Source: Minisyncoccota bacterium (GTDB taxonomy: Bacteria; Patescibacteriota; Minisyncoccia; Phycocordibacterales; Phycocordibacteraceae). Taken from it: 58,458 nt of DNA. The notes below the pieces were generated by a model. That model had not been told where the DNA came from, ran no database searches, and saw only the letters and a list, made by a program, of their open reading frames with translations. The stretch covers positions 1 through 58,458 of the forward strand of contig DASZVH010000001.1 of NCBI GenBank assembly GCA_035547315.1, read 5' to 3'. The first letter of the stretch is position 1. Each line of letters starts with the position of its first letter. The translations under genes were made by a program, and so were the position numbers. Shown here piece after piece: positions 18,304 to 56,303 of this stretch.

Positions 18304-18364
18304 TTCGCAGACGCAAAGCGCGCGGCGGCCTTTGGCCGCCGCGCGCATTGCTATAATCGCGGCA

Positions 18365-29445: not shown

Positions 29446-29841
29446 CTACACGATTTGCGGCAGGTATTTCACGAGCGCCTTGCCGTCCCGCCGCCGCAGC
29501 CACACGAGGCAGCCGTCTACTTGCCACTCCCCTTCCCAGTGCTTCTCGAGGCAATACCACTCGGCCGTGCGCGCCACTTTGCGCAGCTTCGATTCGTGCA
29601 GATTCAAGGACGGGTCGTATTCATCGCGCGCTGAGCTTTCGTCCGAGAACTCGTCGGCGAGGACCGTCTTCACCTCTACTATGTGGAGCAGGTCTCTCTC
29701 TTGCGCGACGAGGTCGAGCTCTCCGGTCTTGCGCGCGACATTGCGATCAATCACCTTGAAGCCGCGCCGCCGCAGATACTCCGCGGCAATAGCCTCGCCC
29801 AAGTTGCCGATCTCCTTTCTGGATTTGTGAGTCAAATCCAT
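29446..29841 (-). CDS. YraN family putative endonuclease
   Basis: G..GEAIAAEYL...G, RN, GELDLVA, VEVKT. Confidence 0.92.
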   Translation of the reverse strand: MDLTHKSRKEIGNLGEAIAAEYLRRRGFKVIDRNVARKTGELDLVAQERDLLHIVEVKTVLADEFSDESSARDEYDPSLNLHESKLRKVARTAEWYCLEKHWEGEWQVDGCLVWLRRRDGKALVKYLPQIV

Positions 29842-29960
29842 GCCCTTTAATTATACCGCTTAGATGCTCGGCTTTCCTCGGACAGATGAAGAGCTTCATG
29901 TCCTTTATCCCCAATGTCCACATGTTTTTGCACACCCCCCGAACTAGCGTGCCTGCGCTA

Positions 29961-29976
29961 CGAAGCCTTGGCGAAG
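29961..29976. repeat. Short interspersed REP-like element
   Basis: CGAAGCCTTGGCGAA is identical at 29961-29975 and 46986-47000; variants at 56186, 20178 and 12531. Confidence 0.6.
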
Positions 29977-29979
29977 TAG

Positions 29980-30050
29980 TGCGGTTAGGGAGAATCGAAC
30001 TCCCGTCTCGTCCTTGGCAAGGACGCGTTCTACCACTAAACCATAACCGC
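29980..30050 (-). tRNA. tRNA-Gly(GCC), CCA not encoded
   Basis: GCGGTTA acceptor, CGTCC-TTGCCAA-GGACG, GAGTTCGATTCTC; followed by CTA. Confidence 0.95.
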
Positions 30051-30069
30051 GTTAGCGAGCACTATATCA

Positions 30070-30141
30070 TGCCTCGGCCAGGAATCGAACCCAGAATTCG
30101 ACGTCCGAAGCGTCGCGTGATATCCGTTTCACCACCGAGGC
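30070..30141 (-). tRNA. tRNA-Arg(TCG), CCA not encoded
   Basis: GCCTCGG/CCGAGGC acceptor, CGACG-CTTCGGA-CGTCG anticodon arm, GGTTCGATTCC T-loop (T-stem has two G-U pairs). Confidence 0.9.
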
Positions 30142-30180
30142 GCTGTACGGAGAGTAGCATACTGATGCTAGTATCTGGCT

Positions 30181-31662
30181 ATGTCCCGCCCCGCCCCAAG
30201 CGGCTCCTTCCCTGTTCCGCCGGCGGTCGCTGCGGTCGCCCGCACGCTTGCGCAGGCCGGCCATGAGGCCTACTTCGTCGGGGGCTGCGTGCGCGATCTC
30301 CTCATCGGCCGCGAACCCAAAGATTGGGACGTGACCACCAACGCCGACCCGGCGCAGATACAGGCCCTATTCCCCGATTCCTTCTACGAGAACGACTTCG
30401 GCACCGTGGGGGTCAAGACCGGCTCGGGCGACCCGACGACGGAAATCGTAGAGGTGACTCCTTATCGCACCGAGTCGGGCTATAGCGACAAGCGTCGGCC
30501 GGACGCCGTGGCCTTCGGCCATTCGCTCGAGGAGGATCTCGCGCGGCGCGACTTTACCATCAACGCCATCGCCATGGATGTTAAGGGACATATCGTTGAC
30601 CCTTATAAAGGACAAAAGGACATAGAGACAAAGGTCATCCGCGCGGTAGGCGACCCTTTAATCCGATTCGAGGAGGATGCACTGCGGCTTATGCGGGCTG
30701 TCCGCCTGGTGGCGCAACTCGGCTTCGCTCTCGATAGCGAGACGGCGGCCGCGATACAGCAAAAGGCCGCTAATCTAAGCCATATCTCACGGGAGCGGGT
30801 ACGCGACGAGCTCATCCGCATTTTGGAGTCGCAACAGCCGATGACTGCTCTCGTGCTTGCCCAGCAGCTGGGCATTTTGGCATTTATTGCGCCCGATCTT
30901 AGCCGCGGCGTCGGCGTGGAGCAAAATCAGGCCCACAGCTACGACGTCTTCGGCCACCTTATGCGGAGCATGCAGCATGCTGCTGACAAGGGCTGGGACT
31001 TCGACATACGTCTTGCCGCCCTCTTCCACGATGTCTCTAAGCCGGAGACCCGTCGTTGGTCTGATGAAAAGAAGGACTGGACCTTTCATGGGCATGAGGT
31101 AGTCGGTTCACGTGTAACGAAAAAAGCTCTCGAAGACCTTCATTTTTCACGCGAAACAATAGAAAGAGTCGTGAAACTCGTGCGATGGCACATGTTTTTC
31201 TCCGATCCAGACCAGGTGACCCTCTCCGCAGTGCGGCGCGTGATTACCAATGTTGGGAAGGAGAATATCGATGACCTCCTTAAGCTCCGCATCTGCGACC
31301 GCATCGGGACGGGGCGGCCCAAGGAGCAGCCCTTTCGCCTGCGTAAGTACATGGCGATGGTGGATCAGGCGCTCCGCGATCCGATCAGCGTTGGGATGCT
31401 CAAGACTAACGGCAGCCAGATCATGGAGAAGTTCCACGTGCAACCGGGGCCGGTCATCGGCTGGACCTTGAACGCGCTCCTCGAAGAGGTCCTCGATGAC
31501 CCTAAGCGCAATACTCCCGATTATCTCGATAATCGAACAGCCGAGCTGCTCGCGATGCCGCCTGAGGAGCTCAGGACGCTGGGCGAATCCGGCAAGCAAA
31601 AGAGGGAAGAACGCGAGGATCAGGAAGTGCGCGAAATAATGGAGAAGCATCACGTGTGCTAG
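30181..31662 (+). CDS. cca: CCA tRNA nucleotidyltransferase with HD domain
   Basis: VGGCVRDLL, DWD, EEDLARRDFTINA, EDALRLMRAVR, SRERV, HD domain (H.YDV..H, HDVSK, HGHE). Confidence 0.93.
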   Translation: MSRPAPSGSFPVPPAVAAVARTLAQAGHEAYFVGGCVRDLLIGREPKDWDVTTNADPAQIQALFPDSFYENDFGTVGVKTGSGDPTTEIVEVTPYRTESGYSDKRRPDAVAFGHSLEEDLARRDFTINAIAMDVKGHIVDPYKGQKDIETKVIRAVGDPLIRFEEDALRLMRAVRLVAQLGFALDSETAAAIQQKAANLSHISRERVRDELIRILESQQPMTALVLAQQLGILAFIAPDLSRGVGVEQNQAHSYDVFGHLMRSMQHAADKGWDFDIRLAALFHDVSKPETRRWSDEKKDWTFHGHEVVGSRVTKKALEDLHFSRETIERVVKLVRWHMFFSDPDQVTLSAVRRVITNVGKENIDDLLKLRICDRIGTGRPKEQPFRLRKYMAMVDQALRDPISVGMLKTNGSQIMEKFHVQPGPVIGWTLNALLEEVLDDPKRNTPDYLDNRTAELLAMPPEELRTLGESGKQKREEREDQEVREIMEKHHVC

Positions 31663-31721
31663 CCGTAATGGCTAGCACATACCGAGGCAGGCGGGAGATC
31701 AGGTTCCACGCGGAACGAGTA

Positions 31722-31975
31722 AACAAAAAGCCGCCCTATGACTTAGAGGTCGAAGGAGCGGGGCAAATATGATGACCTCTTAGGAGTGGGCGGGCGGCTT
31801 TTAGTTGCACAAAGAGCAGAGCGTTTCGCGTGAACCAGGACCCAAAGGCAGGTTCGTGGATGCGCCACGGCGTTGGCCAGGCCACGGATCAGCTGACTGA
31901 TGAAAGATCGCGCAAAGAACAGCCGAAAGCCAGCTGTCCTTGTGCGAGCTCAAGGTTAGCCAACCTCCTTTGCGT
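31722..31975 (-). ncRNA. Candidate structured small RNA (or small-peptide mRNA)
   Basis: Lies between a predicted promoter (31976-32003) and a terminator-like stem AAAAGCCGCCC/GGGCGGCTTTT. Includes a 13-bp helix (31911-31946) whose wobble pair forms only on the minus strand. Confidence 0.5.
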
Positions 31976-32030
31976 ATTCTAATGTCCTTTATCCTCGTGT
32001 AAAGGACACCCCTGTGGACAATGTCCTTTA
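31976..32030 (-). promoter_or_regulatory. Promoter overlapped by a triple TGTCCTTTA repeat
   Basis: Minus-strand TTTACA-N16-TAGAAT. TGTCCTTTA at 31983-31991 and 32022-32030, inverted TAAAGGACA at 32000-32008. Confidence 0.5.
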
Positions 32031-32828
32031 ATCGAGCGTGAGAGAAACAGGACAGTGGTCGGAGCCCATGAGCTCGGGGTGGATCTCGGCCTTTTTGATC
32101 TTGCGCGCGAGGGCGTGGCTCGCGAAGAGGTAGTCGATGCGCCAGCCCACGTTGCGCTCGCGCGCGTGCTGCCAGTGGGTCCACCAGGTGTAGGCGTCTT
32201 TTTCTTCGGGATGCAGATGCCGGAAGGTGTCAACGAAGCCGGCCTTGATGATCGCTTCTGCGCCCGCGCGCTCCTCTTTGGTGTAGCCGTGCTCGCCCTC
32301 GTTCTCCTTGGGGTGGGCGAGATCGATGGGGGAGCGGGCGACGTTCAAATCCCCGCCGAAGATGACAGGCTTTTCTTCCTCCAGCCGCTTCATGTATTCG
32401 AGGAAGGCCGGATCCCACTGCTTGTGGCGGAGCGCGAGGCGGGAGAGGTCGCCCTTGGAGTTGGGAGTGTAGACCGAGACGGCGAAAAGGTCGCCCAGAT
32501 CGGCCGCGATGACGCGGCCTTCTTCCGCCGGGTTGCCATAGTCGTCGCCCGCGAGCGTATATTTCTCGACTAGATCCGCCGGGAGGCCGAAGCGCACGTC
32601 TTCCGGCGTGCGCTTGGTGAAGACGGCGACGCCGCTGTAGCCCTTCTTATGTTTTGCCGACTCCCAGAACTCCTCATAGGCGGGGAGGTCGAGCGGCGAC
32701 TCGTGCTCCTGCGCCTTCGTCTCCTGCAGGAGGAGAATGTCCGGCTTCAAGGCCTTGAGCATGTGCTCAAAATCGCCCTTCTTGTGCACGGCGCGGATGC
32801 CGTTGACGTTCCAGGAGACGATCCGCAT
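32028..32828 (-). CDS. xth: Exodeoxyribonuclease III / AP endonuclease
   Basis: SWNVNGIRA, LQETK, GYSGVA, EGR, YTPNS, GDLNVA, GWRIDY, SDHCP. Confidence 0.97.
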   Translation of the reverse strand: MRIVSWNVNGIRAVHKKGDFEHMLKALKPDILLLQETKAQEHESPLDLPAYEEFWESAKHKKGYSGVAVFTKRTPEDVRFGLPADLVEKYTLAGDDYGNPAEEGRVIAADLGDLFAVSVYTPNSKGDLSRLALRHKQWDPAFLEYMKRLEEEKPVIFGGDLNVARSPIDLAHPKENEGEHGYTKEERAGAEAIIKAGFVDTFRHLHPEEKDAYTWWTHWQHARERNVGWRIDYLFASHALARKIKKAEIHPELMGSDHCPVSLTLD

Positions 32829-32889
32829 ACGCAACCGATGGTAGCACAACGCGGTTTATAAAGACGGACGCACTCAAGAGGAGCTACCC

Positions 32890-33204
32890 ATGTGCGACAT
32901 ACGCGAAGCGCGGCGCGTGCGGAACGCGCAGTTCCTCGCCTCGATACCCAAACGGCGGGAGCTGACAAAGGAGGAAACGGAGCGCGCGCTCAGAGCCTGC
33001 AATCTGCTCAACGCAATGCGCGAGACCTTCGGCATGGGCGACATCGCGTCGCTCGGGGCCGCCGGGCTCAAAGGACCCTATTGCCGGTATCTGCACGATC
33101 TCTCACTCATCCCCGACGCGGCGCTCGAATTCTTCCGCGAGGCGCTGCTGCCCGCATCCGATTTCCGTATCGCGCGCATCAAACGCAACGAGGTCCCGAC
33201 CTAG
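32890..33204 (+). CDS. Hypothetical protein
   Basis: 104-aa ORF with GAGGAG RBS, followed by hairpin GAGGTCCCGAC/GTCGGGGCCTC. Confidence 0.55.
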   Translation: MCDIREARRVRNAQFLASIPKRRELTKEETERALRACNLLNAMRETFGMGDIASLGAAGLKGPYCRYLHDLSLIPDAALEFFREALLPASDFRIARIKRNEVPT

Positions 33205-33213
33205 TCGGGGCCT

Positions 33214-34128
33214 CTAGCTATGCGAGTGGTACTTCTTATGCACCTCGCGCAGGTGGGAGTCGGTGATATGCGTGTAGATCTGCGTGGTGTTGATGGAGGC
33301 GTGGCCGAGGAGCTGCTGGACGCTCCGTAAATCGGCGCCGTTCCCGAGGAGGTCGGTCGCGAAAGCGTGGCGCAGGATGTGCGGCGTGACCTTCTTTGTG
33401 ATGCCGGCCATCGCGGCGTATGTTTTCAAATGCCGCTGGACGTCGCGCGGCGTGATGCGGTGCAGTTTGGTCTCCCGCCCGTCGAGGAAGAGCGCCTCCT
33501 CCATATCCTTGCGCGCCTTGAGATACTCGCGCACCGCCTGCTTGGCGCTCTCGGAGAGGAAGACGACGCGCACTTTCTCGCCCTTGCCGCGCACCGAGAG
33601 GTCGTCGCGCGAGAGGTCGAGGTCGCTGTCGAGCGCGCAGAGCTCGGAGACGCGCAGCCCGGTGGAGAAGAGGAGCTCGAGTATGGCTTTATCGCGAAGA
33701 TACGCGCGCCGTTTGTGCTCGTCTTTCTCCTTCGCGAGCGCCTCGGCGGGCGCTTTCATTAGTCGGGAGAGTTCCGCGGTTGTAATCAGCGTGATCTCGC
33801 GCTCAGGGAGCTTGGCGAGCTCGATGCGCTCCGGAGAGAGCGCCTCGACGCCGCGCTTGCGCAGATATTTGAGGAATGCGCGCAGCGCGATCATGTAGTA
33901 GTTCTGGGTGCGGCGCTTCATCGGGCCGTTCTGCGCTCCCGGCTGCCGGTTGAGCCAGAGGCGGAACTCGCGCACGTTCTGCTCGGTGATCTCGCTCGTA
34001 TCCTTGACGCCCATCTGGGCGAAGTAGCGGGTGAGATAGCGCTCATAGTTCTCGGTCGTCTTGACCGCGCGGCCGCGCTCGATCTCGAGATGCTCCAGAA
34101 ACTCTCGCTTGGCGCGCATCGACTCCAT
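33214..34128 (-). CDS. XerC/XerD-like tyrosine recombinase
   Basis: STGLRVSEL (R), GKGEKVR (K), TPHILRH (HxxR), LLGHA (H), TTQIYTH (Y). Confidence 0.95.
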   Translation of the reverse strand: MESMRAKREFLEHLEIERGRAVKTTENYERYLTRYFAQMGVKDTSEITEQNVREFRLWLNRQPGAQNGPMKRRTQNYYMIALRAFLKYLRKRGVEALSPERIELAKLPEREITLITTAELSRLMKAPAEALAKEKDEHKRRAYLRDKAILELLFSTGLRVSELCALDSDLDLSRDDLSVRGKGEKVRVVFLSESAKQAVREYLKARKDMEEALFLDGRETKLHRITPRDVQRHLKTYAAMAGITKKVTPHILRHAFATDLLGNGADLRSVQQLLGHASINTTQIYTHITDSHLREVHKKYHSHS

Positions 34129-34162
34129 GGGGCCATTCTACCCTGGCGCGCCGCGCGCGATA

Positions 34163-34597
34163 CTAGGCCGCGGGCTTGCGGAGCTTGCCGGCAAGCACGA
34201 TGCCGAGCGCGGCGAGCGCGTAGAGGACGGCGAGCGCGCGGGCGGCTGCGGCGCTCTCGATCGCGCCGCCGAGCGGGAGCCCGACAGGGAAGATGCCGAA
34301 GATGATGAAAAGCATCAGCGGCACATACCAGAGCGAGAATTTCACGAAACGACTGAACGCGCGCTCATCGGCGAGGAGGAGGATGAGAGCGGTGGGAAGA
34401 AGCCACTCGCCGAGGATCATTAATGTAAGGCCCAGATTTAAATTTGGTGAGTTGCAAAACTTCCCCCACTGATCGTAACTAAATTCGCATGAATTTATAG
34501 TAAGGTTCTGGAACCAGGGGCCTCGAAAATACTGCCCGACTAAATAAATTAAACCGGCGATACCAAATGCCGATGCTTTCTTAAGCGCGAGCTTCAT
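34163..34597 (-). CDS. Small multi-pass membrane protein, candidate immunity protein
   Basis: From MKLALKK (144 aa), about four TM segments, ATG overlaps the lipase TGA (ATGA); 5' half AT-rich. Confidence 0.7.
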   Translation of the reverse strand: MKLALKKASAFGIAGLIYLVGQYFRGPWFQNLTINSCEFSYDQWGKFCNSPNLNLGLTLMILGEWLLPTALILLLADERAFSRFVKFSLWYVPLMLFIIFGIFPVGLPLGGAIESAAAARALAVLYALAALGIVLAGKLRKPAA

Positions 34598-37500
34598 AAC
34601 TTCAAGTATTGTATCAGCCCGAGCATCGAAGCCGCTTGATCCTCGCTTAGTTTCACCCCCGCTTGAGCGCCGATGAGCGTTTCGAGCCAGGAGACATCGG
34701 CTTGCGCGCTCGCGAGCTCGCCCGCCTCGCCCGCGAGCTTCTCGATCTGCGCGAGGAGGCGATTCTTCACCCCCGGCCGCGCCGAGAGCGCCGCGACCTC
34801 CTGCCGCAGGAGCGAGAGCGCGTCGGCCGGCGCGAGCGCTGCGGGGGTGTCGCTCGCCACCTCGAGGTCGATGACGCCGTCGCCGTCGATATCCACTTGC
34901 GGCTCGCTCGCCGCGCCGCCCTCGATTGAGAAGGCCATCGTCGTCGAGGCCGTGGTCGGGATCGCAGCGAAGCTCTCCTCGCTCTGCACCGCGCCCTCCG
35001 CGTCTACCTCCTCGACCTCGAGCGTGGTGGGGCCCTGCGCATAGCCGGCCGCCGCGACGGAGTATGAGCCCTCTTGCGGGAGCGTCAGATACTCCTCGCC
35101 GCTCTCGAGGTCGACGGCGCTCTCGGGGATATGCGCGACCGTGAGCGCGAGGCCGGTCCCGGCGGCCGGCACGACGCCGGTCTCGTTGCCCGAGGCGTCG
35201 GTCGCGATGATATTGACGGGAGAGTGAGAGCTGATGATGACAAGAGGATCTTTTTTGGTCGAGGGCTTTAATGAGGTCAGATAAAAATTCGAGATGGGTT
35301 GTCCCTTTATCAAATCGCTGAGTGTTTCTTGAATAGGCTGGGCAGAGGTAAGATCCTGATGAGAGAAATTTTGATGGAAGTCCGTTCCGTATTTTTTCAA
35401 ATTGAAATACCACGCATCGGCGATGTCGCCGAGCGCGGAGGGCGAGACAACGGTGCCATCGCCGTCCTCCGTCTTCTTTTCGGTGTGCTGGAGGATCGGC
35501 TTGAGCTCGCAATGGGCCGGATTAAGCGGGTCCGAGCGGCCGCAGGAGAGGATGTTGAAGGCGGCTTTGGTGTAGTCGAGCGTCGCGGGAGTGAGCGAGC
35601 CCCACCCGGCGATGGCGCTCACCGCGATCCCTGCGGGCGGCTGCCAGGAGTCGAGCGCTTGGTGGCCCTCTTCCGCTTTCTGGATCGCGGAGACCGGCAG
35701 CGGCAGCGGCGCCTTCAGCGTCGAATTGTCGAACTGCTCGTCGATGCCTTTTCCGTCGTCGATGAAAGACTCGAATGCGCCGAAGGCGCTGATCGCGCTG
35801 CCGTATGCGTCGACGAACGGCTTGAGCAGCGCGTTGTCGGAAAACTCGACGACCGGCGTCGCCACGTGCGTGAAGTAGGCGGGCGAGGGCAGGAGCGCGT
35901 AGGCGTCGGGAATGACCTCGGCCTCGGCGCGCACCGCCTTGGCCGAGACCAGGTCGAGCCCGAAGCCGAGCCCGATCGACTGGCCGTCGCCATGGAGGAG
36001 CGAGCCGACCGCGGCGGGCGTGCCGAACTGCGGCGTGCCGACCAGGATGATGCGGTCGATATAATCGGCGGCGCTCGGGCCAAGCTCCTGCGTCAGCGCT
36101 TTGGCGAGGAGGCCGCCGTTGCTGTGCGCGATGATAGTGACTTTGCCGGTGGGGGAGGAGCTCGCCATCTGCGCGACGACGTCGGCGAGATAGACGCGCG
36201 CGATCGAGCCGTCGGGCTCCTCGGTGAGCGTGCCGTTCTTGACCACGTCGAGCGGGTCATAGCGCCAGTCGTAGGGATACGCGCGCCACTCCTTGATCGT
36301 GCTCGAGGCGACGAGCCCGTCGAGGAATTGCTCGAGCCCGCCGTAGACCTCGAGGTCGCCCGGCGCGATCGCTTTGACGAGGCGCGCGATGATGCCCGGG
36401 TCCTGGCTCCAGATCGAGTCGATTATGTCTTTGGTGTAGAGATTGTTCGCGCTCGAGCCGTCCAGGTTGATGGCGAGATACTTGAGGTCCGCGTCGCTCG
36501 CGGGCTCCCAGACCCGCTTCTCCGTGTTACTCGAGAGCTTCATATATAAGCGGCTCGCCTCGGTGCCGGGGATAAAGAGGACGCTCGAGTGCCCTGGCGG
36601 GGGCGCGAGGAACGGGTCGGCGGAGAGCCAGGGAGCATAGGAGACCGCGCCGCTTACGCTCGCTCCCGCGCCTTCCGGATTCCCTGCGGGCTCGGCGGGG
36701 CCGCTCGGGTCGCCCCAGTAGTCGTCTTCAGCCGAGGTGGTGGCGCTGCCGTCGTTCTCGATGCCGAAAGCGCCGGCCGCGCCGATATCGCTCTCGTGGA
36801 TCGTGAGCTCGCCCGAGGCCACGCGCGCGCCGGCGGGCAGATGCACGCGCTCGAGGTCGCTCGCGCCCTCCTCCTCGAGCACGTCCCGGCCGATCGAGCC
36901 CGAGAAGGAGGTGTCGCTGATCGAGAGCGTCCCGCCGGCGTTGAAGAGGGCGCTCGAGCAGGGGCTCGCGTCGACCGAGTCGTCCGCGCAGAGGCTCCGA
37001 TCCCACTCCTCGCCGCCGTGATCGAGAGCCGCGTGCGCGAGCGAGAGCGTGCCTCCGCTCTCGATCGCGATGCCGGGCCAGCCGGCGGCCTGCGCCTGCG
37101 CGCTCGGCGCAAGCGTCACCGGCGCCTCCGCGTTCCCCTGAGCGGAGAACGCGCCGGAGATATCGAGCCCGCCGTGCGGGCCGAAGGCGAGCGTCGCCCC
37201 CGGCGCGGCCGAAACGCTCGTGCCCTCGTCTACCGCGATGTACTCCTCGATCTCGTTAGCATAGGGCGGCGGCGGAAAGACCTGGGTATCGGCGAGATCG
37301 CTCGCGTCCCACTCGAGCGCAAGCGGCGCGGACTCCGGCCCTGCGAGCAGGAGCCCGCCCTCCACCGAGCTCGCCTCCGCAATAGTATCCTCGGCGAGCC
37401 TGAGCGTGCCGCCCGCCAGGTCGACGCCGCGGCCGCCCTTCTGCGAGGCGCCGATGGTCGTGCCCTCGATCGTGGTCGAGGCGGTATCTTCGCCGAACCA

Positions 37501-38046: not shown

Positions 38047-38146
38047 GAACTCATACAGGATACGACGAATACGCCCGGCGCGTGTAGAGAAGGTTATCCC
38101 CAGTTCTTGGGCAGCGGCGGCGCGCATGAGGTATACTGGCTGCACC

Positions 38147-41100
38147 ATGCCGTCGTTCTCAAAGCGGTTCGTTTTCGCGGCAGCCGTGCTCCTTCTTCCG
38201 CTCTCCTTCGCCCTCCCCGCGCACGCCGCCGAGCTCTCCGAGGACCAAATCAACTCGCTCCTCGCGCTCCTGACCTCCTTCGGCGTCGACCAAGCCACGC
38301 TCACTACCGTCGACGACATCCTCCACGGCATCACGCCGCCCGCCGCCAACTGCCCTGACCTCGAGCGTACCTTGGGCGAGGGGATGAGCGGCGCCGACGT
38401 TACCGCGCTTCAGCAGTTCCTCGCGGCGGACCCGACCGTCTATCCCGAGGGCCTCGTTACCGGCTATTTCGGCTCTTTGACGCAGGCCGCGGTACAGCGT
38501 TTCCAAGCCAAGCAAGGCATCATCAACTACGGTACTCCCGCCACCACAGGCTACGGCCTCGTGGGGCCTAAGACGCGCGCGACTATCGCCTCGGTCTGCC
38601 AGTTGAGCACCGTTGGTACGGGCGGCTACACAGGCGGTGGCGAGGGCGGAGGGGGTGGCGGCGGTGGTGGTGGCGGTGGTGGCGGAGGAGGAGGGGGCGG
38701 CGGGGGAGGAGGAGGGGGCGGCGGAGGGGGCGGAGGCGGCGACACTAACCCGCCCACGACGCCCGGCAATCTCCAGGGTACGCCGACCACCACGACCGTC
38801 GCGCTCTCCTGGAACGCCTCGAGCGACGACACGGGCGTCGCCGGCTATGACGTCTACGAAAACGGCAGCATGATCGCCTCGGGCTCGGACACGAGCTATG
38901 TCGCGGCAGGTCTTACCTGCGCTACGAGCTACACCTTCGCGGTCGACGCCTACGATGCCGCCGGCAACCGCTCGGGCCAGGCGAATATCCAGGTAACCAC
39001 CCAGGACTGCGGCGGAGGGGGCGACACCAACCCGCCCACGACGCCCGGCAGCTTCGGCGCGAGCGGCGTTACCGCCTCGCAGGTCCAGCTCTCCTGGGGC
39101 GCCTCGAGCGACGACACGGGTGTTGCGGGCTACGACATATATAAGAACGGAGTTTCCTCCTGGTCGACCGCCTCGACCAGCTATTCCTTCACCGGCCTTA
39201 CCTGCGCGACCTCCTACACCTTCGGCGTCGACGCCTACGACGCCGCGGGCAACCACTCGGGCCAGGCGACCACCGCGACCACGACGCTCCCCTGCGTCGA
39301 CACGCAGCCGCCCTCCACCCCTGCGCCCGCCGTGGCCAGCTCATCGTCCGACTCGATAACGGCGCAGTGGAGCGCCTCGAGCGACGATACCGGCGTCGCG
39401 GGCTATGACGTCTACGAGAACGGCACCAAACTCGGCAGCACGACGAACCTCTCTTACGCCTTTACCGGCCTCTCCTGCGGTACGAGCTACACGCTCGGCG
39501 TCGACGCCTACGACGGCGCGGGCAATCACTCCGCGATCGGCACGGTGCAGGGCTCGACGCTCTCGTGCGGCGGCGGGGGCGGCAGTGGCGCGCAGATCGC
39601 CATCCCGACCTATCCGGAGAAGTCAGTGGTCATCGCGACGACGAACGTCCTCAACTACGGCGCCGACCCGACCGGGAAGACCGACTCGACCAACGCCTTC
39701 CAGCAGGCGCTCGATGCCGCGTTCGCCAAGGGCGGCGGCACGGTCTGGGCGCCGGCGGGCACGTACCGCTTCAACGGCCAGATCACGGTCCCCTCGAGCG
39801 TTACGCTGCGCGGCGACTGGAAACAGCCCACCGACTCCGACAAATCGGTTGGCGGTACCATCCTTGCGATTTACAACACGAGCAGCAGCTTCGTCCTCCT
39901 CGACGGTGCCGGTGGGCTCGAGGATTTGAATTTTTGGTATCCTTCGCAATCTATCACGAGCATTAATACGGCAGTTCCAGTGACGGTAGCGCTCGATCCG
40001 GACGCGCCGCACTCCTTGCGCAATCCTTCGGTTCTGGACAGCACATTCGTCAATCCGACCATGATTTTCGACGCGCGCGGAGCCTCTGGTAAGGGGATTG
40101 AACTTGACAATATATACGGTTCGCCGCTCGTGACCGGTGTCATCCTGGCCGACACGACAAGCGCTTGCCGTGTAAGCGACCTCCACCTCGGCGCCGTCTA
40201 TTGGGCCTCCTCGGGCCTCTCCGGCGCACCCTCGTATTCCGCGCTCGCGGACTACACCCGCACGCACACGATCGGCGCGGAGTATGACGATAATTGGCTC
40301 TCCTCGAACGTCTCACTCGATGACTTCGAGATAGGGCTCTATTATGCCGGCAAGTACAAGGGACCTAACAATCCGGTCGTGACCGGCGAGACCATCACGG
40401 GGCTCGAGATCAGTGGCGCCAATATCGGCATCAAGATCAGCCAGTACAACTTTTTCATGAGCGTTGCGTCGATAAGCGCTACCGCGGGCACGAATCCAAC
40501 CGCGATACTGATCACAAAGAATGATGCGAAGGGTAACCCTACCACGGGCCGGTTGGTGTTTGACGACACCACGCTCTCCTCGAGCGGCGCGGACATCACG
40601 AACCAATCGTCATCCTTCGATATCGACGCGGCCAATGACACCTTTGCCTCATGGGGCGGGTATGCGATCACCGTTGCCGGCGGCCTTGCGCTCGAGGGCG
40701 ATCACTTCTCTCAAGCGGCTTCGGGCAACACCAAGGATCTGTCGCTTGGAAGCTCAGTGCCGCGGGCCTTTATCGTCGGCAATACCTATCCGAGTGGGCA
40801 AAGCGCGATCGCCATGGATAGCGCGGCGAATCCGAGCAATGTTTGGGTTGCCGAGGGCCTCACTGATACAGTGCTTGCTGCACTCGGTATAAGCGGGTTT
40901 CCGAGCTCAGGCTACACGGTTGATGCGCTTGCCCACCTCGCGCCGCCGCAGCCCAAGCCCGCCCGCACTGGTACCGACTCCCTTTATGATGTCACCGCCT
41001 ACGGCGCGAAGGCAGACTGTATCGACAGCGATTTCAACGATTCGGGCATTATGACCGGCGGTTGCACCGACAACACAGCAGCATTCCAAGCGGCGCTCAA

Positions 41101-43624
41101 TGCGGCCGGTAATGCAGGCGGCGGCACCGTGTATGTGCCCGGCAGTCCGGCGACCGGCATGGGGTACTTTTTCACCGGCAACCTCCGTGTGCCCACGGGA
41201 GTTGAGCTTACCGGTGCGCCACAGGATTCCGCATTCCACACGCTTGATACGCAGACCGCGCTTTTCGTGCAAGGGAATTCTTCACCCTTCATCGCGCTTT
41301 CCTCGAATGCGGGCGTGCGTGGCCTCGCGTTCTGGTATACCAACCAAGACGCCTATCATCAGGCGCCGTACAATGGGCCGCAGCCTTTCGGCTACACCAT
41401 TCAGGCGCAAGGCGCCGGGGATTGGGTCGAGAATGTCGTTAACGCAAATGCGACCTATGGACTCGATTTCGGCACTTACGGCTCGACCGGCCACTTTATC
41501 GACAACTACCAAGCAGCGGTGCTCCGCGACGGTATCTTCGTGAGCAAGAGCACGAGCGGTTTTATTGGGAATCTGCAGACAGTCTTTACTTTCTGGCTCG
41601 ACCTTGGGAAAGGCTCCGGCGACAACCAGAAAATTCTCTCGTACCCCGAGCCTTTCGGGAATCCTCCCTCAGACTTGGATCAAAACGGAAACAGAGATAC
41701 TGACACCGGCGAACCCGCGGATGCGTATGCTTCGGGGAGTGGGCTTCTTTTGGGGAGTGCCAAGAACGAAGTCATCCAGAGCGTGTATCTCCACGGCCCC
41801 CATTACGGTATCCAGACAGTAAACGACAACGGCGGGCCCAGCTTCACGCTTCTTAATTTCGGCTCTGAGACGTATACCGGCCTTGATGTCGAGGCGCTCG
41901 ATCCGGCCGGCGCCAAGATACTCGCGGCCCAGTACCACACGATCGCGGACAGCTGCTATCCCGCCAGCTGCGGCGACGCGGTGGGCAAGCCTTATCTCAT
42001 CGTCGGCAGCGGCGTCGCGCCGACCACGCCGATCACCTTCTTCTCCTACGCCAATCATTCGATGACGCCGATCGGCTTCGATCTCTCCGGAGGAAAAACC
42101 ATCATCGAGCAATACTCAAGCGACCTGCAGGCTAACACAATCGCGAGCATTCAGACGGCAGCGGCAATCCACGGGGCTCTGACCGGCTTCGCGCTTCTCG
42201 ACGGGAAATTCCTCAATTCGCTCACCGCGCCGGCTCGGCAAGGCGGTCCGAGCAATCCGAACGCGACGGTCGTTTCCGACGACCTGAGTCCCAATGTTGC
42301 GCTCGTGGGCATCTGGGCGGTCGATAATCCGGCTCAAGTGAGCGGTCCGGTTGATCTCACCTACCAGCCTTGGTTCACGGGCGGAGGCAGCGGCCCCGAT
42401 ACGACGCCGCCTTCCGCGCCGACCAATCTTGCCGGCACCGGCGCGGGGGGCGTGGCGGCGCTCACCTGGACTGCCTCCACCGACGACGTTGGTGTCGCGG
42501 GCTACAAGGTGATCCGCGACGGCGCGCAGATCGCGACCACCACGCTCGCGCTCTACACGGATCTTGGGGTAACGGTCGGTCAGACTTACACTTATAAAGT
42601 CAAGGCCTTCGACGCGGCGGGCAATGTCTCAGGCGCTTCCAATGCGGCGCAGGTGACGATCCTCGGCCACAGCGGTCTTGGCACCCCTTCAGGCGGAGGC
42701 AGCTCGCAGCTTCAGGAGGGTGCCGGCACCTGCAACGCACCGGCAGCAAACCTCGCGTTTGGCGCCACCGGCGCGGCGGTGACCACCCTCCAGCAAGCGC
42801 TCATCGCGCTCGGCTACTCGCTCCCGGCCGGCGCCACCGGCTACTACGGCAGCCAGACCGTCGCGGCGGTCGAGGCCTTCCAAGCCGCGCACGGGATCGT
42901 CTCCTCGGGGAGCGCCGCGACGACCGGCTTCGGCGCCGCGGGCCCCACCACGCGCGCGGCGCTCGAGAGCGTCTGCGGCAGCGCGCCCTCCTCTCCTGTG
43001 AGCGGCACCGGCGCGGCCGGCGGCACCTCGGGCGCGGCCGGCGGCACCGGCGGCTCGGCCCCGGCGAGCGGCGCGGGGAGCGCCGGCGGCGGCAGCTGCC
43101 CGCTGCTGCCTACGACGCTCGCCGAGGGCTCCTCGGGCACCGCGGTCACCGCGCTGCAGCAGCTCCTGCTCGCGCTCGGCTACTCGCTCCCGGCCGGCGC
43201 CACCGGCTACTACGGCAGCCAGACCGTCGCGGCGGTCGAGGCCTTCCAGATTTCCCATACGATCGTCTACTCGGGCACGCCGGCCTCCACCGGCTTCGGC
43301 GCCGCGGGGCCGCGTACCGTCGCTGCGCTCGCTGCCGCATGTGGCTCCTCCTCGAACAGCCCAACCAACCCCTCTTCGGAGACTTCGGGCGGTCTCGGCA
43401 CGTCGACGCAATCGGGCACCGGCGCCGTCGGCGGAGTGAGCTCGGGCACGGGCACGGGCGGCACCGGCGCGGCCGGCGGCACCTCGGGCGCGGCCGGCAG
43501 CACCAGCTCCGGCACCGGCACCTCGGGCGCAGCCGACAGCACCAGCACCAGCTCCGGCACCGGCACGGCGACCTCGACGAGCAAGGGTTCTGCGGTCGGC
43601 GGCCTCAGCCCCTCCTCGCGCTAG
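38147..43624 (+). CDS. Giant secreted protein (1825 aa): 3 peptidoglycan-binding domains, 4 FN3, two Pectate_lyase_3-like beta-helix glycosidase modules
   Basis: PG-binding DVTALQQFL...TGYFGSLT.AAV..FQ (x3); FN3 DT.PP..P...W.AS.DD.GVAGY (x4); NVLNYGADPTGKTDSTNAFQ and YDVTAYGAK...DNTAAFQ with GGGTV..P.G.Y; poly-Gly linker. Confidence 0.85.
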   Translation: MPSFSKRFVFAAAVLLLPLSFALPAHAAELSEDQINSLLALLTSFGVDQATLTTVDDILHGITPPAANCPDLERTLGEGMSGADVTALQQFLAADPTVYPEGLVTGYFGSLTQAAVQRFQAKQGIINYGTPATTGYGLVGPKTRATIASVCQLSTVGTGGYTGGGEGGGGGGGGGGGGGGGGGGGGGGGGGGGGGGGGDTNPPTTPGNLQGTPTTTTVALSWNASSDDTGVAGYDVYENGSMIASGSDTSYVAAGLTCATSYTFAVDAYDAAGNRSGQANIQVTTQDCGGGGDTNPPTTPGSFGASGVTASQVQLSWGASSDDTGVAGYDIYKNGVSSWSTASTSYSFTGLTCATSYTFGVDAYDAAGNHSGQATTATTTLPCVDTQPPSTPAPAVASSSSDSITAQWSASSDDTGVAGYDVYENGTKLGSTTNLSYAFTGLSCGTSYTLGVDAYDGAGNHSAIGTVQGSTLSCGGGGGSGAQIAIPTYPEKSVVIATTNVLNYGADPTGKTDSTNAFQQALDAAFAKGGGTVWAPAGTYRFNGQITVPSSVTLRGDWKQPTDSDKSVGGTILAIYNTSSSFVLLDGAGGLEDLNFWYPSQSITSINTAVPVTVALDPDAPHSLRNPSVLDSTFVNPTMIFDARGASGKGIELDNIYGSPLVTGVILADTTSACRVSDLHLGAVYWASSGLSGAPSYSALADYTRTHTIGAEYDDNWLSSNVSLDDFEIGLYYAGKYKGPNNPVVTGETITGLEISGANIGIKISQYNFFMSVASISATAGTNPTAILITKNDAKGNPTTGRLVFDDTTLSSSGADITNQSSSFDIDAANDTFASWGGYAITVAGGLALEGDHFSQAASGNTKDLSLGSSVPRAFIVGNTYPSGQSAIAMDSAANPSNVWVAEGLTDTVLAALGISGFPSSGYTVDALAHLAPPQPKPARTGTDSLYDVTAYGAKADCIDSDFNDSGIMTGGCTDNTAAFQAALNAAGNAGGGTVYVPGSPATGMGYFFTGNLRVPTGVELTGAPQDSAFHTLDTQTALFVQGNSSPFIALSSNAGVRGLAFWYTNQDAYHQAPYNGPQPFGYTIQAQGAGDWVENVVNANATYGLDFGTYGSTGHFIDNYQAAVLRDGIFVSKSTSGFIGNLQTVFTFWLDLGKGSGDNQKILSYPEPFGNPPSDLDQNGNRDTDTGEPADAYASGSGLLLGSAKNEVIQSVYLHGPHYGIQTVNDNGGPSFTLLNFGSETYTGLDVEALDPAGAKILAAQYHTIADSCYPASCGDAVGKPYLIVGSGVAPTTPITFFSYANHSMTPIGFDLSGGKTIIEQYSSDLQANTIASIQTAAAIHGALTGFALLDGKFLNSLTAPARQGGPSNPNATVVSDDLSPNVALVGIWAVDNPAQVSGPVDLTYQPWFTGGGSGPDTTPPSAPTNLAGTGAGGVAALTWTASTDDVGVAGYKVIRDGAQIATTTLALYTDLGVTVGQTYTYKVKAFDAAGNVSGASNAAQVTILGHSGLGTPSGGGSSQLQEGAGTCNAPAANLAFGATGAAVTTLQQALIALGYSLPAGATGYYGSQTVAAVEAFQAAHGIVSSGSAATTGFGAAGPTTRAALESVCGSAPSSPVSGTGAAGGTSGAAGGTGGSAPASGAGSAGGGSCPLLPTTLAEGSSGTAVTALQQLLLALGYSLPAGATGYYGSQTVAAVEAFQISHTIVYSGTPASTGFGAAGPRTVAALAAACGSSSNSPTNPSSETSGGLGTSTQSGTGAVGGVSSGTGTGGTGAAGGTSGAAGSTSSGTGTSGAADSTSTSSGTGTATSTSKGSAVGGLSPSSR
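42804..43248 (+). repeat. 79-bp exact direct repeat (42804-42882 and 43170-43248)
   Basis: TCGCGCTCGGCTACTCG...GAGGCCTTCCA occurs twice, within the duplicated PG-binding domains. Confidence 0.9.
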
Positions 43625-43651
43625 CGTTTCCTCGGATGCGGCGCGCGCGCC

Positions 43652-43680
43652 TTGCACGGCGCGCGCGTTCTTGCTACATT
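43652..43680 (+). promoter_or_regulatory. Sigma70-like promoter of tuf
   Basis: TTGCAC-N17-TACATT. Confidence 0.55.
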
Positions 43681-43752
43681 CTTTAGTAACGCTTTCGGCG
43701 TCACTCGGCTCTTGCCGGGGTTTATTCGTGTCTTAGCAATAATTTATCCACC

Positions 43753-44952
<1,200 letters not shown>

Positions 44953-44972
44953 GCCTCTCCCGATTCTCAATC

Positions 44973-45006
44973 CAAGAACCCGCGGCCTTCCGGTCGCGGG
45001 TTCTTG
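44973..45006 (+). terminator. Intrinsic terminator after tuf
   Basis: CAAGAACCCGCG...CGCGGGTTCTTG followed by CGTTTTT. Confidence 0.75.
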
Positions 45007-45048
45007 CGTTTTTAATGGGCATAGTGCATACTCGGCTGTACACGTTCT

Positions 45049-45441
45049 ATGACAGCGGCAACGGCAACCAAAGAGCCTAAGACGCGCGCGGCGAAGCCGC
45101 GCGCGAAGAAAGCTGCTGCCGACGCCGCTTCTCAGGAGCACAAGCTCCGCATTCGGGTAAAGGCCTACGAGCACAAGATCCTCGACGTCTCCGTGAAGCA
45201 GATCATGGACACCGCGGCGCGCTTCGACGCGAAAGTCGTCGGCCCCGTGCCGCTCCCGACCGAGATCAAGCGCTGGACGGTCAATCGCTCCACCTTCGTC
45301 CACAAGGACGCGCGCGAGCAGTTCGAGATGCGCATCCACAAGCGCCTCATAGACATTTTGAATCCCTCGCCGAAGGTCATCGAAGCGCTCACCAATCTCA
45401 ATCTCCCCTCGGGCGTTTCCATCGACGTGAAGATGGTCTGA
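45049..45441 (+). CDS. rpsJ: 30S ribosomal protein S10 with Lys/Ala-rich N-terminal extension
   Basis: [32 protein letters not shown]. Confidence 0.98.
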
Positions 45442-45549
45442 GGAATCGAATGAGCCGCAGGCCGGGAACCGCCCGCGGCTTTTTGCTGCGGTTGCATTTG
45501 CTCGCGAAGCGCGTAGGCTGAGCGCGGAAACCACAGGGAGCAATAGAAG

Positions 45550-46098
45550 ATGGGGAAAATACTTGCGATCTTTACCGCATCCTCCGCCGGTGCGCCGATG
45601 GAGTCGGTGCGCTACGCGGCGCTTATCGCGGGGGCGGGCATCGCGGGCGACCGCTATGCGCTCGGCACCGGGAAGTATTCGCACTCGACCCCGCCGAAGA
45701 TACGCCACGTGACCTTCATCGCTCGCGAGGCGATCGAGCGAGCGAACCGGGAACTGCCCGCGGGCACACATTTCGCCCCGATCGACACGCGCCGCAACGT
45801 GCTCGTGGAGGGAATCGAGCTCAACGGCCTTGTTGGGCGCTTCTTCGGCAACAAGAAGGTGCTCTTCGAGGGCGTCGAACTCGCCGAGCCGTGCCTGCGG
45901 CCGCCCGCGCTGCTCAATCGGCGTTGGGCTGAGGTACGGAATGCCGCCATAGGAAGGGCCTTCGTTACGGCCTTTCGGCATCGGGGCGGCCTGCGCGCGG
46001 CGATCTATATGGACGCGCGTATCGCCGTCGACGATCCGCTCTGGGCCTTCAGCGAAGCGGAGGCGCGCCAGCGCTTCCCGGGCTTGGCGAGATCGTGA
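45550..46098 (+). CDS. MOSC domain-containing protein
   Basis: GIAGDRY, RRNVLVEGI.LN.LVG, EPC. Confidence 0.8.
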   Translation: MGKILAIFTASSAGAPMESVRYAALIAGAGIAGDRYALGTGKYSHSTPPKIRHVTFIAREAIERANRELPAGTHFAPIDTRRNVLVEGIELNGLVGRFFGNKKVLFEGVELAEPCLRPPALLNRRWAEVRNAAIGRAFVTAFRHRGGLRAAIYMDARIAVDDPLWAFSEAEARQRFPGLARS

Positions 46099-46263
46099 AC
46101 CAGGGGCCGCGAGCGCAAGCTCGCGGCCCGTTTCATACCCGATTCATCCGCGCCCTGCTAGAGTGGCCGCAACGCCGATCCGGATCGAGTTCTCTCGGGA
46201 ATTCTCAATGGATCGGCGGGACCAGCCGCCGCCTCCGGGCGGCGGCCGCGTACCCGGGAGGAC

Positions 46264-46292
46264 TTGCAATTTTACCGCACTAGTGCTATAGT
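46264..46292 (+). promoter_or_regulatory. Sigma70-like promoter of the small ORF at 46316
   Basis: TTGCAA-N17-TATAGT, then AGGAGG before ATG. Confidence 0.6.
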
Positions 46293-46315
46293 CTTTTCTA
46301 GAAAAGGAGGACAAA

Positions 46316-46549
46316 ATGTTCAAACAATTTTTGTTTTTCGCCAGCAGCGAGGCCCTCCGGGCCGAGCTGGAAGAGATCAACGGCAAGATCGGGGCGGTGC
46401 TTTCCGTGCTTGAGCAGCATCTCAAGCAGGGCAGCGACGACCACCGATCCGCCAGGTTGAACTGGGGACTCCTCGAACGGCTCCTGGAGCGGCGCTATGC
46501 CCTCTGCGAGCGACTCGAGATCCCGGTGCCCCTTCTCCGGCAGCGCTGA
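46316..46549 (+). CDS. Hypothetical helical protein (77 aa)
   Basis: Own promoter and strong RBS; amphipathic Leu-rich sequence. Confidence 0.65.
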   Translation: MFKQFLFFASSEALRAELEEINGKIGAVLSVLEQHLKQGSDDHRSARLNWGLLERLLERRYALCERLEIPVPLLRQR

Positions 46550-46605
46550 CGAATCACCTTTTTGAAGCCGGAGCTTTATCTGAAAAATGATGAAGCTTCG
46601 GCTTC

Positions 46606-46734
46606 TTGCATTTCCAGAGCGGGCACGGTAGAGTGCTCGGGTCGCTATGTCCTCCCGAGCCCTCGACGGGTTCTCGGGCAGGACCTCCAGCAAATCGCCC
46701 CGAAGCGATGCGCTGAGGGGCGATTTGTCTACCC
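46606..46734 (+). promoter_or_regulatory. rplC promoter and two-hairpin 5' leader
   Basis: TTGCAT-N17-TAGAGT (46606-46634); hairpins at 46649-46684 and 46691-46727 (11-bp perfect stem). Confidence 0.6.
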
Positions 46735-47367
46735 ATGAAATTCATCCTCGCGCGCAAGATCGAGATGACCCGAGTATTCGGGGAGGATGGCCGTGCGCAC
46801 GCGGGCACCGTGCTTGCCGCGGCGCCAGTCGTCGTGACCCAGGTCAAGACCGCGGCGGGCGCGGACAAATACGACGCCGTGCAGGTTGGCGAGGGCTCCC
46901 GCAAGGCCAAGAACGTCTCGAAGGCCGTCCTCGGCCACACCAAGAGCAAGGCTTTCTCGGCGCTGCGCGAGTTCCGGGTCCCCTCCGAAGCCTTGGCGAA
47001 AGAGGGCGCTGCGGCCGGCGCCGAGATCACGGTCGAAGCGTTCGCGGTCGGCGACTCGGTCGTGGTGTCCGGCCTCTCCAAGGGCAAAGGCTTCGCGGGC
47101 GTGGTGAAGCGCCACGGCTTCCACGGCGGGCGCCGCTCCCACGGCCAGAAGCACTCGGAGCGCGAGCCCGGCTCGATCGGCGGCTCGGGCGGCCGCGCGG
47201 GCGGCCGCGTCGCCAAGGGCATCCGCATGGCCGGGCGCCTGGGCGGCGCGCGCGTGACGGTCAAGAACCTCAAAGTGCTCGCGGTGGACGCGGCGAATCA
47301 TCGCCTGATCGTCTCCGGCGCGGTGCCGGGCGCGCGCGGCACGCTGCTCGAGGTCGTTTCCGCATAA
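46735..47367 (+). CDS. rplC: 50S ribosomal protein L3
   Basis: KIEMT.VF, SKGKGFAG..KRHGF, H.HREPGSIG-like HSEREPGSIG, MAGRLG. Confidence 0.97.
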   Translation: MKFILARKIEMTRVFGEDGRAHAGTVLAAAPVVVTQVKTAAGADKYDAVQVGEGSRKAKNVSKAVLGHTKSKAFSALREFRVPSEALAKEGAAAGAEITVEAFAVGDSVVVSGLSKGKGFAGVVKRHGFHGGRRSHGQKHSEREPGSIGGSGGRAGGRVAKGIRMAGRLGGARVTVKNLKVLAVDAANHRLIVSGAVPGARGTLLEVVSA

Positions 47368-56020: not shown

Positions 56021-56303
56021 TCGCTGTAACAAAAACGAGTGCGGCTCTGCGAGCTTGGTTGTAGTCCTTCGAATTGCTATAATCGCTCTGATGGTTTCGC
56101 AAAAGGACAAAACGGAAGCGGAAGCGCGCAAAAAGGAGATTCAGGCCTTTGCGCGTGATTTTATTCGCCGCTATAGGCCTTGTTTCGAAGCGCTGGCGAA
56201 GAAATAATTTCGTTCAAACGAATAGCACGGCGCCGGAGGCGCCGCGTTGCGTTTAGCGGGGGGAAGGCATAGGATTATCGCCGGATACCAAGGAGCCGAA
56301 CCA

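Follow-up and report, generated by a model that had tools for sequence, protein, structure and literature searches.

The window analyzed here is a 58,458-nt stretch of DNA from a Minisyncoccota bacterium (Candidatus Kaiserbacteria, within the Paceibacteria of the Patescibacteria), whose assembly comprises 641 kb in 13 contigs with 65% G+C, and it contains two exact copies of a 15-mer, CGAAGCCTTGGCGAA, one beside a tRNA gene and one inside rplC, the gene for ribosomal protein L3. This 15-mer probably forms the core of a small palindromic element that is dispersed in the DNA of Candidatus Kaiserbacteria and related Paceibacteria, with one unit in-frame in L3, and the element most likely belongs with the gene for a small single-domain GIY-YIG nuclease. 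Taken as a whole, this combination of dispersed hairpin element, L3 insertion and GIY-YIG partner is the explanation that we favor, with reasonable though not full confidence. The data establish the family with its covarying structure, uneven copy number, in-frame insertions and recurrent use of one L3 codon, as well as its physical proximity to GIY-YIG genes, whereas recognition of the hairpin by the nuclease and the route of copying are inferred. In broader terms, the picture is one of selfish DNA that reshapes essential proteins in these minimal genomes.

The starting observation is itself modest. The 15-mer is exact at both positions given in an earlier note on this DNA, on the plus strand in each case (29961–29975 and 46986–47000); the first copy is 3–4 nt from the 3′ end of tRNA-Gly(GCC), on the strand opposite that gene, and the second is bracketed by CCCTC/GAGGG within rplC, where it is translated as P-S-E-A-L-A-K-E-G. 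A second-order Markov model of the window predicts ~17 direct and ~21 inverted exact 15-mer pairs, and the repeated 15-mer alone is no more than chance would yield; its significance comes only from structure and comparison. Counting the motif genome-wide, a check proposed in that note, revealed no over-representation, as the exact 15-mer occurs twice in 641 kb and three times when one mismatch is allowed. Since the element has only about five or six copies here, motif counting in this genome alone would mimic a refutation. The top over-represented k-mers of the genome proved to be merely GC-rich codon repeats, and an excess of long exact repeats in the window, considered as a product of the hairpin element, was traced instead to repeat domains in large surface-protein genes.

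Comparison of copies defines a canonical unit of 30 nt. Specifically, a 3-nt 5′ tail (N-T-G) precedes a 5-bp stem (consensus CCCTN/N′AGGG) that encloses two C-G-N-A-G words; these words close a symmetric G-N-A/G-N-A internal loop, which is capped by an apical helix of 3 bp and a loop of 2 nt. Longer forms carry a bigger apical hairpin with an apex of up to ~25 nt, and the whole element measures at most ~60 nt. Across the copies of a copy-rich congener, G062 (823 kb, 55% G+C), the constant parts are the two C-G-N-A-G words, the CCCTN/N′AGGG stem consensus and an unpaired 5′ tail, S-C-K-T-G, at positions −10 to −6 of the 5′ flank. On the 3′ side nothing complements positions −10 to −7, and the G at −6 can pair with the C at +6. 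This conserved unpaired flank gives the hairpin an orientation, and the family as a whole is a short imperfect palindrome with a conserved tag, in the manner of repetitive extragenic palindromes (REPs).

With respect to evidence for the family, this genome contains three near-exact copies, each with different inverted-repeat flanks (GCGCTA/TAGTGC, CCCTC/GAGGG and GTCCCG/TGGGAC). A sequence-only search for the core CG-N-AG-C..G-CG-N-AG with at most 1 mismatch returned 33 matches in 15 of 31 related genomes, as opposed to 5 matches for a backwards control. In 18 of the 29 matches examined, the core was flanked by at least 5 complementary positions of differing sequence, giving flanking stems of 5–7 bp, and this tally is the unbiased part of the structural evidence. 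When the 18 stem-bearing copies were aligned, 86.9% of cells were paired compared to 36–56% in slid registers, changes on both sides were seen at 6 of 8 outer pairs, and the covariation score was reached by 0 of 500 shuffles. The apical helix covaries as well, with GCC/GGC, GCT/AGC, GTC/GAC and GTT/AAC all represented among the G062 copies. A search of Rfam gave no match at either window copy, at eight related loci or in the interval between rpsJ and rplC.

The L3 insertion provides the clearest example of the element in coding DNA. The rplC gene (46735..47367, plus strand) encodes an intact protein of 210 aa and is followed by rplD, rplW and rplB, as judged from its translation, alignment, PF00297 on homologues and the operon open reading frames (ORFs). 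Directly 3′ of the Arg codon of its EFR motif lies the in-frame 30-nt unit (46978..47007, plus strand), which a structure model derived from the 18 stem-bearing copies recovers with 41.7 bits at 46976–47011. The unit reads GTC CCC TCC GAA GCC TTG GCG AAA GAG GGC, encoding V82-P-S-E-A-L-A-K-E-G91, with CCCTC/GAGGG as the stem and CGAAG-CC-TT-GG-CGAAa as the core. The loop that holds it is longer than usual, as had been suspected: 26 residues separate REFR from the next conserved F, versus 20 in most congeners, and this 20-residue baseline is found in 55 of the 121 nearest L3 proteins drawn from a collection of 5.8 billion. The same loop has 22 residues in E. coli and B. subtilis. Alignment with relatives, also proposed earlier, showed the 30-nt unit to be absent from 17 congeners, and it is therefore a lineage-specific insertion in a variable loop. 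When loop residues are counted relative to the baseline (REFR + 8 + 4 + 4 residues) and to two other unit-bearing L3 proteins, P0025 and P0074, A92-A-A-G95 (47008..47019, plus strand) emerges as the remnant of the native loop. This loop usually has 8 native residues, of which just 4 survive here, so the insertion was followed by a deletion of 12 nt, and a 30-nt gain with a later 12-nt loss explains the net gain of 18 nt.

Four other L3 proteins carry the unit, namely P0003 (SAEALAKAG), P0025 (LPSEALAKEG), P0007 (LPSEVSAKEG) and P0074 (VPFVASAKEG). At the DNA level all four contain the exact 30-nt unit N-TG-CCCTN-CGNAG-C..G-CGNAG-N′AGGG-N, and in these and in the window it follows the same CGN (Arg) codon in one orientation and one frame. 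Stem and apex changes among the carriers are compensatory, as in P0003, where a T:A stem pair has become G:C, and P0074 has a different variant of the unit (CGTAG-CT-TC-AG-CGAAG). In both P0025 and P0074 all eight native loop residues are kept after the unit, and the P0074 flanks, T-D-N-T-A-T-V-G, are identical to the sites that stand empty in G010 and G006. The possibility that the stems derive from the target, given that GAG GGC pre-exists in relatives, was dropped, as P0025 and P0074 add the full unit, both arms included, to an intact native loop. An explanation without any element, in which the 15-mer is a chance match and the L3 loop an ordinary indel, can point to the number of 15-mer pairs expected in the window, to the presence of only two exact copies in the genome and to folding energies that are not significant. 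It is nonetheless scarcely credible in the face of all the comparative results, and above all of the finding that four other lineages bear this 30-nt unit, with compensatory changes, at that L3 codon.

In an L3 tree computed with the loop masked, the five carriers require at least 4 gains or losses. Moreover, P0003, which is filled, and P0004, which is empty with its native loop intact, are sisters with 100/96 support, the window L3 being the next branch out, so that the choice is between independent hits on one codon and precise excision of the unit. An AlphaFold2 model of the window protein places residues 84–89 in a short helix between well-modeled strands, with a confidence of ~73 as opposed to ~92 for the flanks. 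The same L3 site also accommodates palindromes of other types: a CCGAC double hairpin (G001, G014), AACTTCA-tcgac-TGAAGTT (L150) and a TTGCCTG...CAGGCGA type.

Some of these L3-site palindromes have a distribution of their own. The double hairpin, CCCCGAC-loop-GTCGGGG-AG-CCGAC-CGAAGC-GTCGG-CT, is in frame at the L3 loop in the rplC genes of G001 and G014 (L003, L011), and partial 5′ tRNA copies that lie just upstream of intact tRNA genes carry it in the D-loop (L060, L061 and L065, from G010, G005 and G014). Inserts of the LPEG[GS]SEQEQ type occupy the same codon in about a quarter of the nearest L3 proteins (P0006–P0085), scattered over the L3 tree, and the one DNA example behind them (L238) is a different imperfect palindrome, TTGCCTG...CAGGCGA. 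The junction between rpsJ and rplC in the window is itself interrupted by a 182-aa gene that reads as MOSC-like (45550–46098), a terminator-like hairpin (46102–46131) and a 77-aa ORF with a strong ribosome-binding site (46317–46550). A MOSC gene (weak Pfam match) also lies just upstream of rplC on the contigs of P0003 and P0004. On the P0025 contig (L234, 185–439), a YoeB/YafQ-type toxin gene with a small upstream ORF immediately precedes rplC, a further sign that the rpsJ–rplC junction accepts foreign DNA.

The recurrent use of one codon bears on whether an enzyme is needed at all. Spread and homogenization could in principle occur through recombination or gene conversion, uptake of foreign DNA or template-switch 'correction' of quasi-palindromes, with a few loops acting as hot spots. 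In keeping with this, the stems vary yet stay paired, as expected from template switching in a hairpin, several unrelated palindromes occupy the same L3 codon, and the core is identical in L3 genes of only 71% protein identity. Such processes do not, however, account for the conserved unpaired 5′ tail and the invariant G..A positions, for core conservation across the order or for specific linkage to one nuclease gene family (described below), and we regard an enzyme-free origin as improbable.

In-frame insertion extends well beyond L3 in G062, where 26 of 48 model hits fall inside predicted genes. At least 12 G062 copies are in frame in genes for which tblastn against the present genome shows an orthologue gap of 6–14 residues exactly at the hairpin. 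The affected genes are housekeeping genes that read as rpoA-, murF-, ksgA-, nusB-, ddl- and xerC-like, among others, these assignments being taken from the sequences. Most of the validated in-gene copies are antisense to the gene and use one reading frame, S-[FYS]-A-K-A-T-E-[DG], and the long-apex forms are mainly intergenic. The antisense excess inside genes (~16 to 10) could be due simply to TAG codons in the sense frames of CGTAG variants; no clear strand bias relative to GC skew or local gene direction was found in G062. The copies are open in all six frames no more often than random 36-mers of G062. Intergenic and in-frame copies and a lineage-specific L3 insertion, together with these G062 cases, support the interpretation, first offered in the earlier note, of a family resembling the Rickettsia palindromic elements (RPEs). 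The accompanying claim that the element remodels ribosomal proteins holds for L3, the only such protein shown to be affected in this genome, and not for others.

In terms of distribution, copies found by the model range from 0 to 41 across 61 congeners, and in the order, 44 of 201 genomes, from 38 of 155 genera, have hits at E ≤ 1e-4, with a maximum of 31 copies; the whole genome of G062, a congener with ~45 copies, yields 48 hits. Patchy presence, variable copy number and non-orthologous positions argue for a proliferating element rather than a housekeeping signal. A cellular RNA or DNA signal, such as an operator that binds a protein or acts on translation, with a 3′ arm (GGAGG) masking the ribosome-binding site, or a tRNA-processing signal, would agree with the several copies that lie 0–20 nt before a start codon, with the Shine-Dalgarno-like 3′ arm and with the copies that adjoin tRNA genes. 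A G-N-A/G-N-A internal loop with a C-U-U-G tip is, in addition, a plausible protein-binding RNA motif. A signal of this kind is nevertheless very unlikely, as the copies face either way with respect to transcription, about half are intragenic and mainly antisense, their positions are non-orthologous with 0 to ~45 copies among congeners, and no Rfam family matches.

The present genome is at the sparse end of this range, with four strong copies, one weaker copy and one long-apex copy that the model missed. Strong copies detected by the model lie on contig C3 (7694–7729) and on contig C6 (28558–28593), the latter ending at the ATG of the GIY-YIG gene; the weaker hit is at C3:44669 in a ParB tail, and the long-apex copy is at about C6:28445–28511. 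In the window, the intergenic copy (29951..29982, plus strand, 45.2 bits) has the form GCCTG-CGCTA-CGAAGCCTTGGCGAAG-TAGTGC. The genes on either side run antisense to it, and the final 3 nt of tRNA-Gly(GCC) (29979/80–30050, minus strand; ARAGORN, and Rfam RF00005 with 72.7 bits), the 3′ end of which abuts this copy, are shared with its outer stem. Downstream of this copy and of a TATAAT box, between tRNA-Gly and tRNA-Pro, is a gene for a small nuclease-like protein of the YraN/UPF0102 family (29446..29841, minus strand, 131 aa; PF02021, E = 4e-16), the link of which to the element is positional only.

Three further variants in the window had been listed alongside the two exact copies, and two of the three are not members, so that this observation is only partly confirmed. 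The variant at 56186 belongs to a possible degenerate copy, GGCCTTGTTT-CGAAGCGCTGGCGAAG-AAATAATTTC (56176..56211, plus strand), with a 6-bp A/T stem (TTGTTT/AAATAA), 19.9 bits and E ~0.01 in a search of the window only; it comes after rplE and a promoter-like TTGCTATAAT box. The variant at 20178 has no flanking complementarity and was not reported by the model even at E ≤ 10, and the sequence at 12531–12547 is an unrelated simple palindrome, GCGCCGAAG-G-CTTCGGCGC, with no model hit. A promoter-like block, TTGCTATAATCGC, is shared by 18344–18374 and 56070–56100, two unrelated places in the window.

A candidate enzyme partner emerges from the neighborhoods of the copies. The only GIY-YIG gene of this genome, on contig C6 (28590–28835), encodes a protein of 81 aa in which PF01541 spans residues 1–70 and no other domain is present. 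A hairpin copy abuts its ATG, and the gene is preceded by an inverted pair of copies. The typical cassette consists, in order, of the 3′ end of a tRNA or other gene, an antisense long-apex copy, a TATAAT box, a sense copy and the GIY-YIG ORF. The intergenic copy of the window holds the position of the antisense cassette copy, following a tRNA 3′ end and followed by a TATAAT box, with the YraN/UPF0102 gene standing where the GIY-YIG gene sits in relatives. On C6 (28420–28900) the cassette is bracketed by a ~60-nt duplicate of the neighboring gene's 3′ end, which suggests that the cassette itself moved. The two bracketing copies have diverged but share a 24-nt perfect core; the gene, of 95 aa, ends in WWEIDPKKH[V/I]PEN..PF*, and it looks as if the cassette integrated into the end of this gene, bringing or creating a replacement end.

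The same arrangement recurs elsewhere. In G062 a hairpin copy lies within 130 nt of 3 of the 6 GIY-YIG genes, and among the four closest GIY-YIG homologues by similarity (G062, G050, G009 and G015) upstream copies are clear in the first three and unclear in G015; G009 has copies on both sides of the gene. In genomes of other families, copies are found at 9 nt in G219, 35 nt in G172 and 127 nt in G101. In an unbiased, genus-wide pattern search for the stem sub-variant TGCACYGCGNAGC, 7 of 23 matches lay within 130 nt of a GIY-YIG gene, compared to ~0.04 expected. Physical linkage is thus well supported, and by analogy the nuclease may recognize the hairpin and have a part in its copying. The precedent is the Ssn family (Chenal et al. 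2025, PMC11893778), exemplified by SsnA of Neisseria meningitidis, a group of GIY-YIG nucleases that have a single domain and measure ~94 aa. On the flanks of their genes are hairpin repeats, oriented and dispersed, that are termed NTS/SRM (SRM, Ssn-related motif) and that the enzymes cut only as single-stranded DNA (PMC11893778).

A different enzyme has also to be considered. The hairpin could be a REP/REPIN-type repeat mobilized in trans by a Y1 (HUH) transposase of the RAYT (REP-associated tyrosine transposase) type, its proximity to GIY-YIG genes being incidental clustering in permissive DNA. Y1_Tnp (PF01797) genes are indeed common, occurring in 15 of 20 genomes tested, and the present genome has one or two. 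The first, at C6:43627–44319, encodes 231 aa with HUH and Tyr motifs and a weak match to the NCBIfam model for REP-associated tyrosine transposases; the second is a degenerate match at C13:14053–14681. Further points in this direction are the C-GTAG sequence of many copies, which recalls the GTAG tag of REPs, and two G062 copies ~500 nt from the single RAYT-like gene of that genome. Each of these RAYT-like genes is flanked, however, by different perfect palindromes of its own. That on C6 has ATATCGAGGTTTAAACCTCGATAT on both sides (5 genome copies), that on C13 is flanked by TACGGAAGTCSGACTTCCGTA (6 genome copies), and that of G062 by TGTGAAGGTCWGACCTTCACA; ATATCGAGGTTTAAACCTCGATAT and TACGGAAGTCSGACTTCCGTA are palindrome families separate from the 30-nt hairpin. 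Apart from the G062 case, no RAYT-like gene was found within 2 kb of a hairpin hit in G001, G009, G010, G045 or G048, and G035, G042 and G013 carry 3–8 RAYT-like genes with zero hairpin hits. The search for a RAYT/Y1 transposase that the earlier note had recommended is therefore negative for this hairpin family, and mobilization by such an enzyme appears rather unlikely. The segment downstream of the G062 gene (C2:27800–28700) contains at least 5 different palindromic repeats, including a ~60-nt GGAGGCTAGAAGCTGG... unit that occurs twice, and looks like a dumping ground for small elements.

Several results weigh against the reading of a mobile hairpin element served by a GIY-YIG nuclease. With regard to structure, the same 18 copies, chosen for having stems, supplied both the covariation counts and the structure model, so that these statistics lean towards structure. 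Nearest-neighbor DNA folding of four copies was unremarkable (−3.2 to −8.4 kcal/mol, z −1.05 to +1.36), with the L3 copy the weakest. Recent activity in this genome is not evident, as there are only about five or six copies, no two identical over their full length, and the copy at C3:7694–7729 lies in a segment that is also present in the G062 orthologue, at equal length and in degenerate form, and may be old or native sequence. No target-site duplication of the kind that bounds a miniature inverted-repeat transposable element (MITE) is visible at the only base-resolved site, that of P0074 (CGC|30 nt|ACT GAC versus CGC|ACC GAC in G010 and G006); other filled and empty pairs, including filled G062 sites versus the empty sites of the present genome (G000), are too diverged for base-level comparison of targets.

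The nuclease partnership meets difficulties of its own. Hairpin hits number 7 in G048, where no GIY-YIG gene is detectable, GIY-YIG genes occur without hairpins in many genomes, and in ten copy-rich genomes of the order a model hit lies within 400 nt of only ~4 of 36 small GIY-YIG genes. The linked cases may also represent one cassette lineage and hence be non-independent. As for membership in the Ssn family, which corresponds to the CDD clade cd10448 (GIY-YIG_unchar_3), the SRM motif HGTCWY..RNCYNB overlaps 0 of 40 G062 copies and is not enriched relative to shuffled sequence (7 versus 3–10 in the present genome, 3 versus 4 in G062). The GIY-YIG protein has no NCBIfam hit, and of the solved structures it matches the UPF0213 protein BH0048 best (1ZG2, E = 2e-8), which makes it at most a candidate member of that clade.

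Given the favored reading of a hairpin element with a GIY-YIG partner, the element would multiply within genomes and land in intergenic DNA, often at tRNA 3′ ends or before start codons; it could land in protein loops as well because the unit is 10 codons long and mostly stop-free. In the present genome, one unit entered rplC after the EFR Arg codon, adding V-P-S-E-A-L-A-K-E-G, with 12 nt of the native loop lost later. By analogy with Ssn and its NTS repeats, the nuclease may bind the hairpin when it is folded in single-stranded DNA and cleave next to it, and such a cut would start copying or excision. A bolder and distinctly tentative proposal is that the ten-codon, largely stop-free, nuclease-linked element is a frame-neutral specialist colonizer of protein loops, which an Ssn-like GIY-YIG nuclease inserts and cleanly excises at preferred sites such as the codon after EFR. 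If so, a 10-residue cassette would be repeatedly gained and lost at the surface of the ribosome and within many further essential proteins, and these would be the first Ssn-type repeats to act as mobile, translated protein modules, offering a mechanism for the unexplained spread of Ssn repeats.

The broader interest lies in genomes of ~0.6–0.8 Mb that have few spare genes and yet tolerate a selfish 30-nt hairpin within the ribosome and, in a relative, in genes for RNA polymerase, cell-wall synthesis and cell division. With one L3 codon occupied repeatedly by several palindrome families, loop lengths are partly set by mobile DNA and not by point indels alone, which has consequences for alignments, for ribosomal-protein phylogenies and for structural studies of ribosomes from the candidate phyla radiation. 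Full-text searching of the literature found no paper on in-frame palindromes in this radiation. Moreover, the GIY-YIG linkage carries the Ssn/NTS idea, which dates only from 2025, into coding DNA and into a new superphylum, and provides a testable enzyme–substrate pair for how such repeats spread.

Among known systems, Ssn/NTS offers the closest parallel in organization. Shared features are a single-domain GIY-YIG protein of ~80–95 aa, a gene flanked by a dispersed hairpin repeat of 20–50 nt, an orientation conferred by a conserved unpaired 5′ flank and a copy number that varies widely between related genomes. The authors of the Ssn study noted an insertion-sequence-like layout and found 2% of NTS repeats to be intragenic (PMC11893778), whereas about half of the copies described here are intragenic. 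The present family also differs in its mismatch to the SRM consensus, in having tens of copies and not hundreds, and in the placement of its copies, most of which lie on the 5′ side of the gene in an inverted pair with the promoter between them.

RPEs are ~100–150 bp long, compared to the 30-nt unit found here. They are described as palindromic selfish repeats that occur between genes and in-frame in housekeeping genes (Ogata et al. 2000, as summarized in PMC10969869 and PMC1779305), and the likeness to the present element is one of behavior: insertion both in-frame in housekeeping genes and in intergenic DNA, tolerated as an extra peptide in a reduced-genome bacterium. Beyond unit length, the two differ in phylum and in the repeated targeting of one codon of one gene in separate lineages.

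REP/REPIN systems with their RAYTs (PMC3116915, PMC3337134) are extragenic by definition and usually occur as hundreds of copies, and families with GTAG and CGTC tags are known (Di Nocera et al. 2013). The present element resembles them as a dispersed short imperfect palindrome with an unpaired tag, found singly or in inverted pairs and linked to one small enzyme gene. It lacks two defining features of REPs, namely extragenic location and the flanking of a RAYT gene, and its pattern of conservation is the opposite of that in typical REP families, since conservation here falls on the loop and internal loop while the stem varies. Taken together, these comparisons describe an element that combines RPE-like behavior with an Ssn/REP-like organization.

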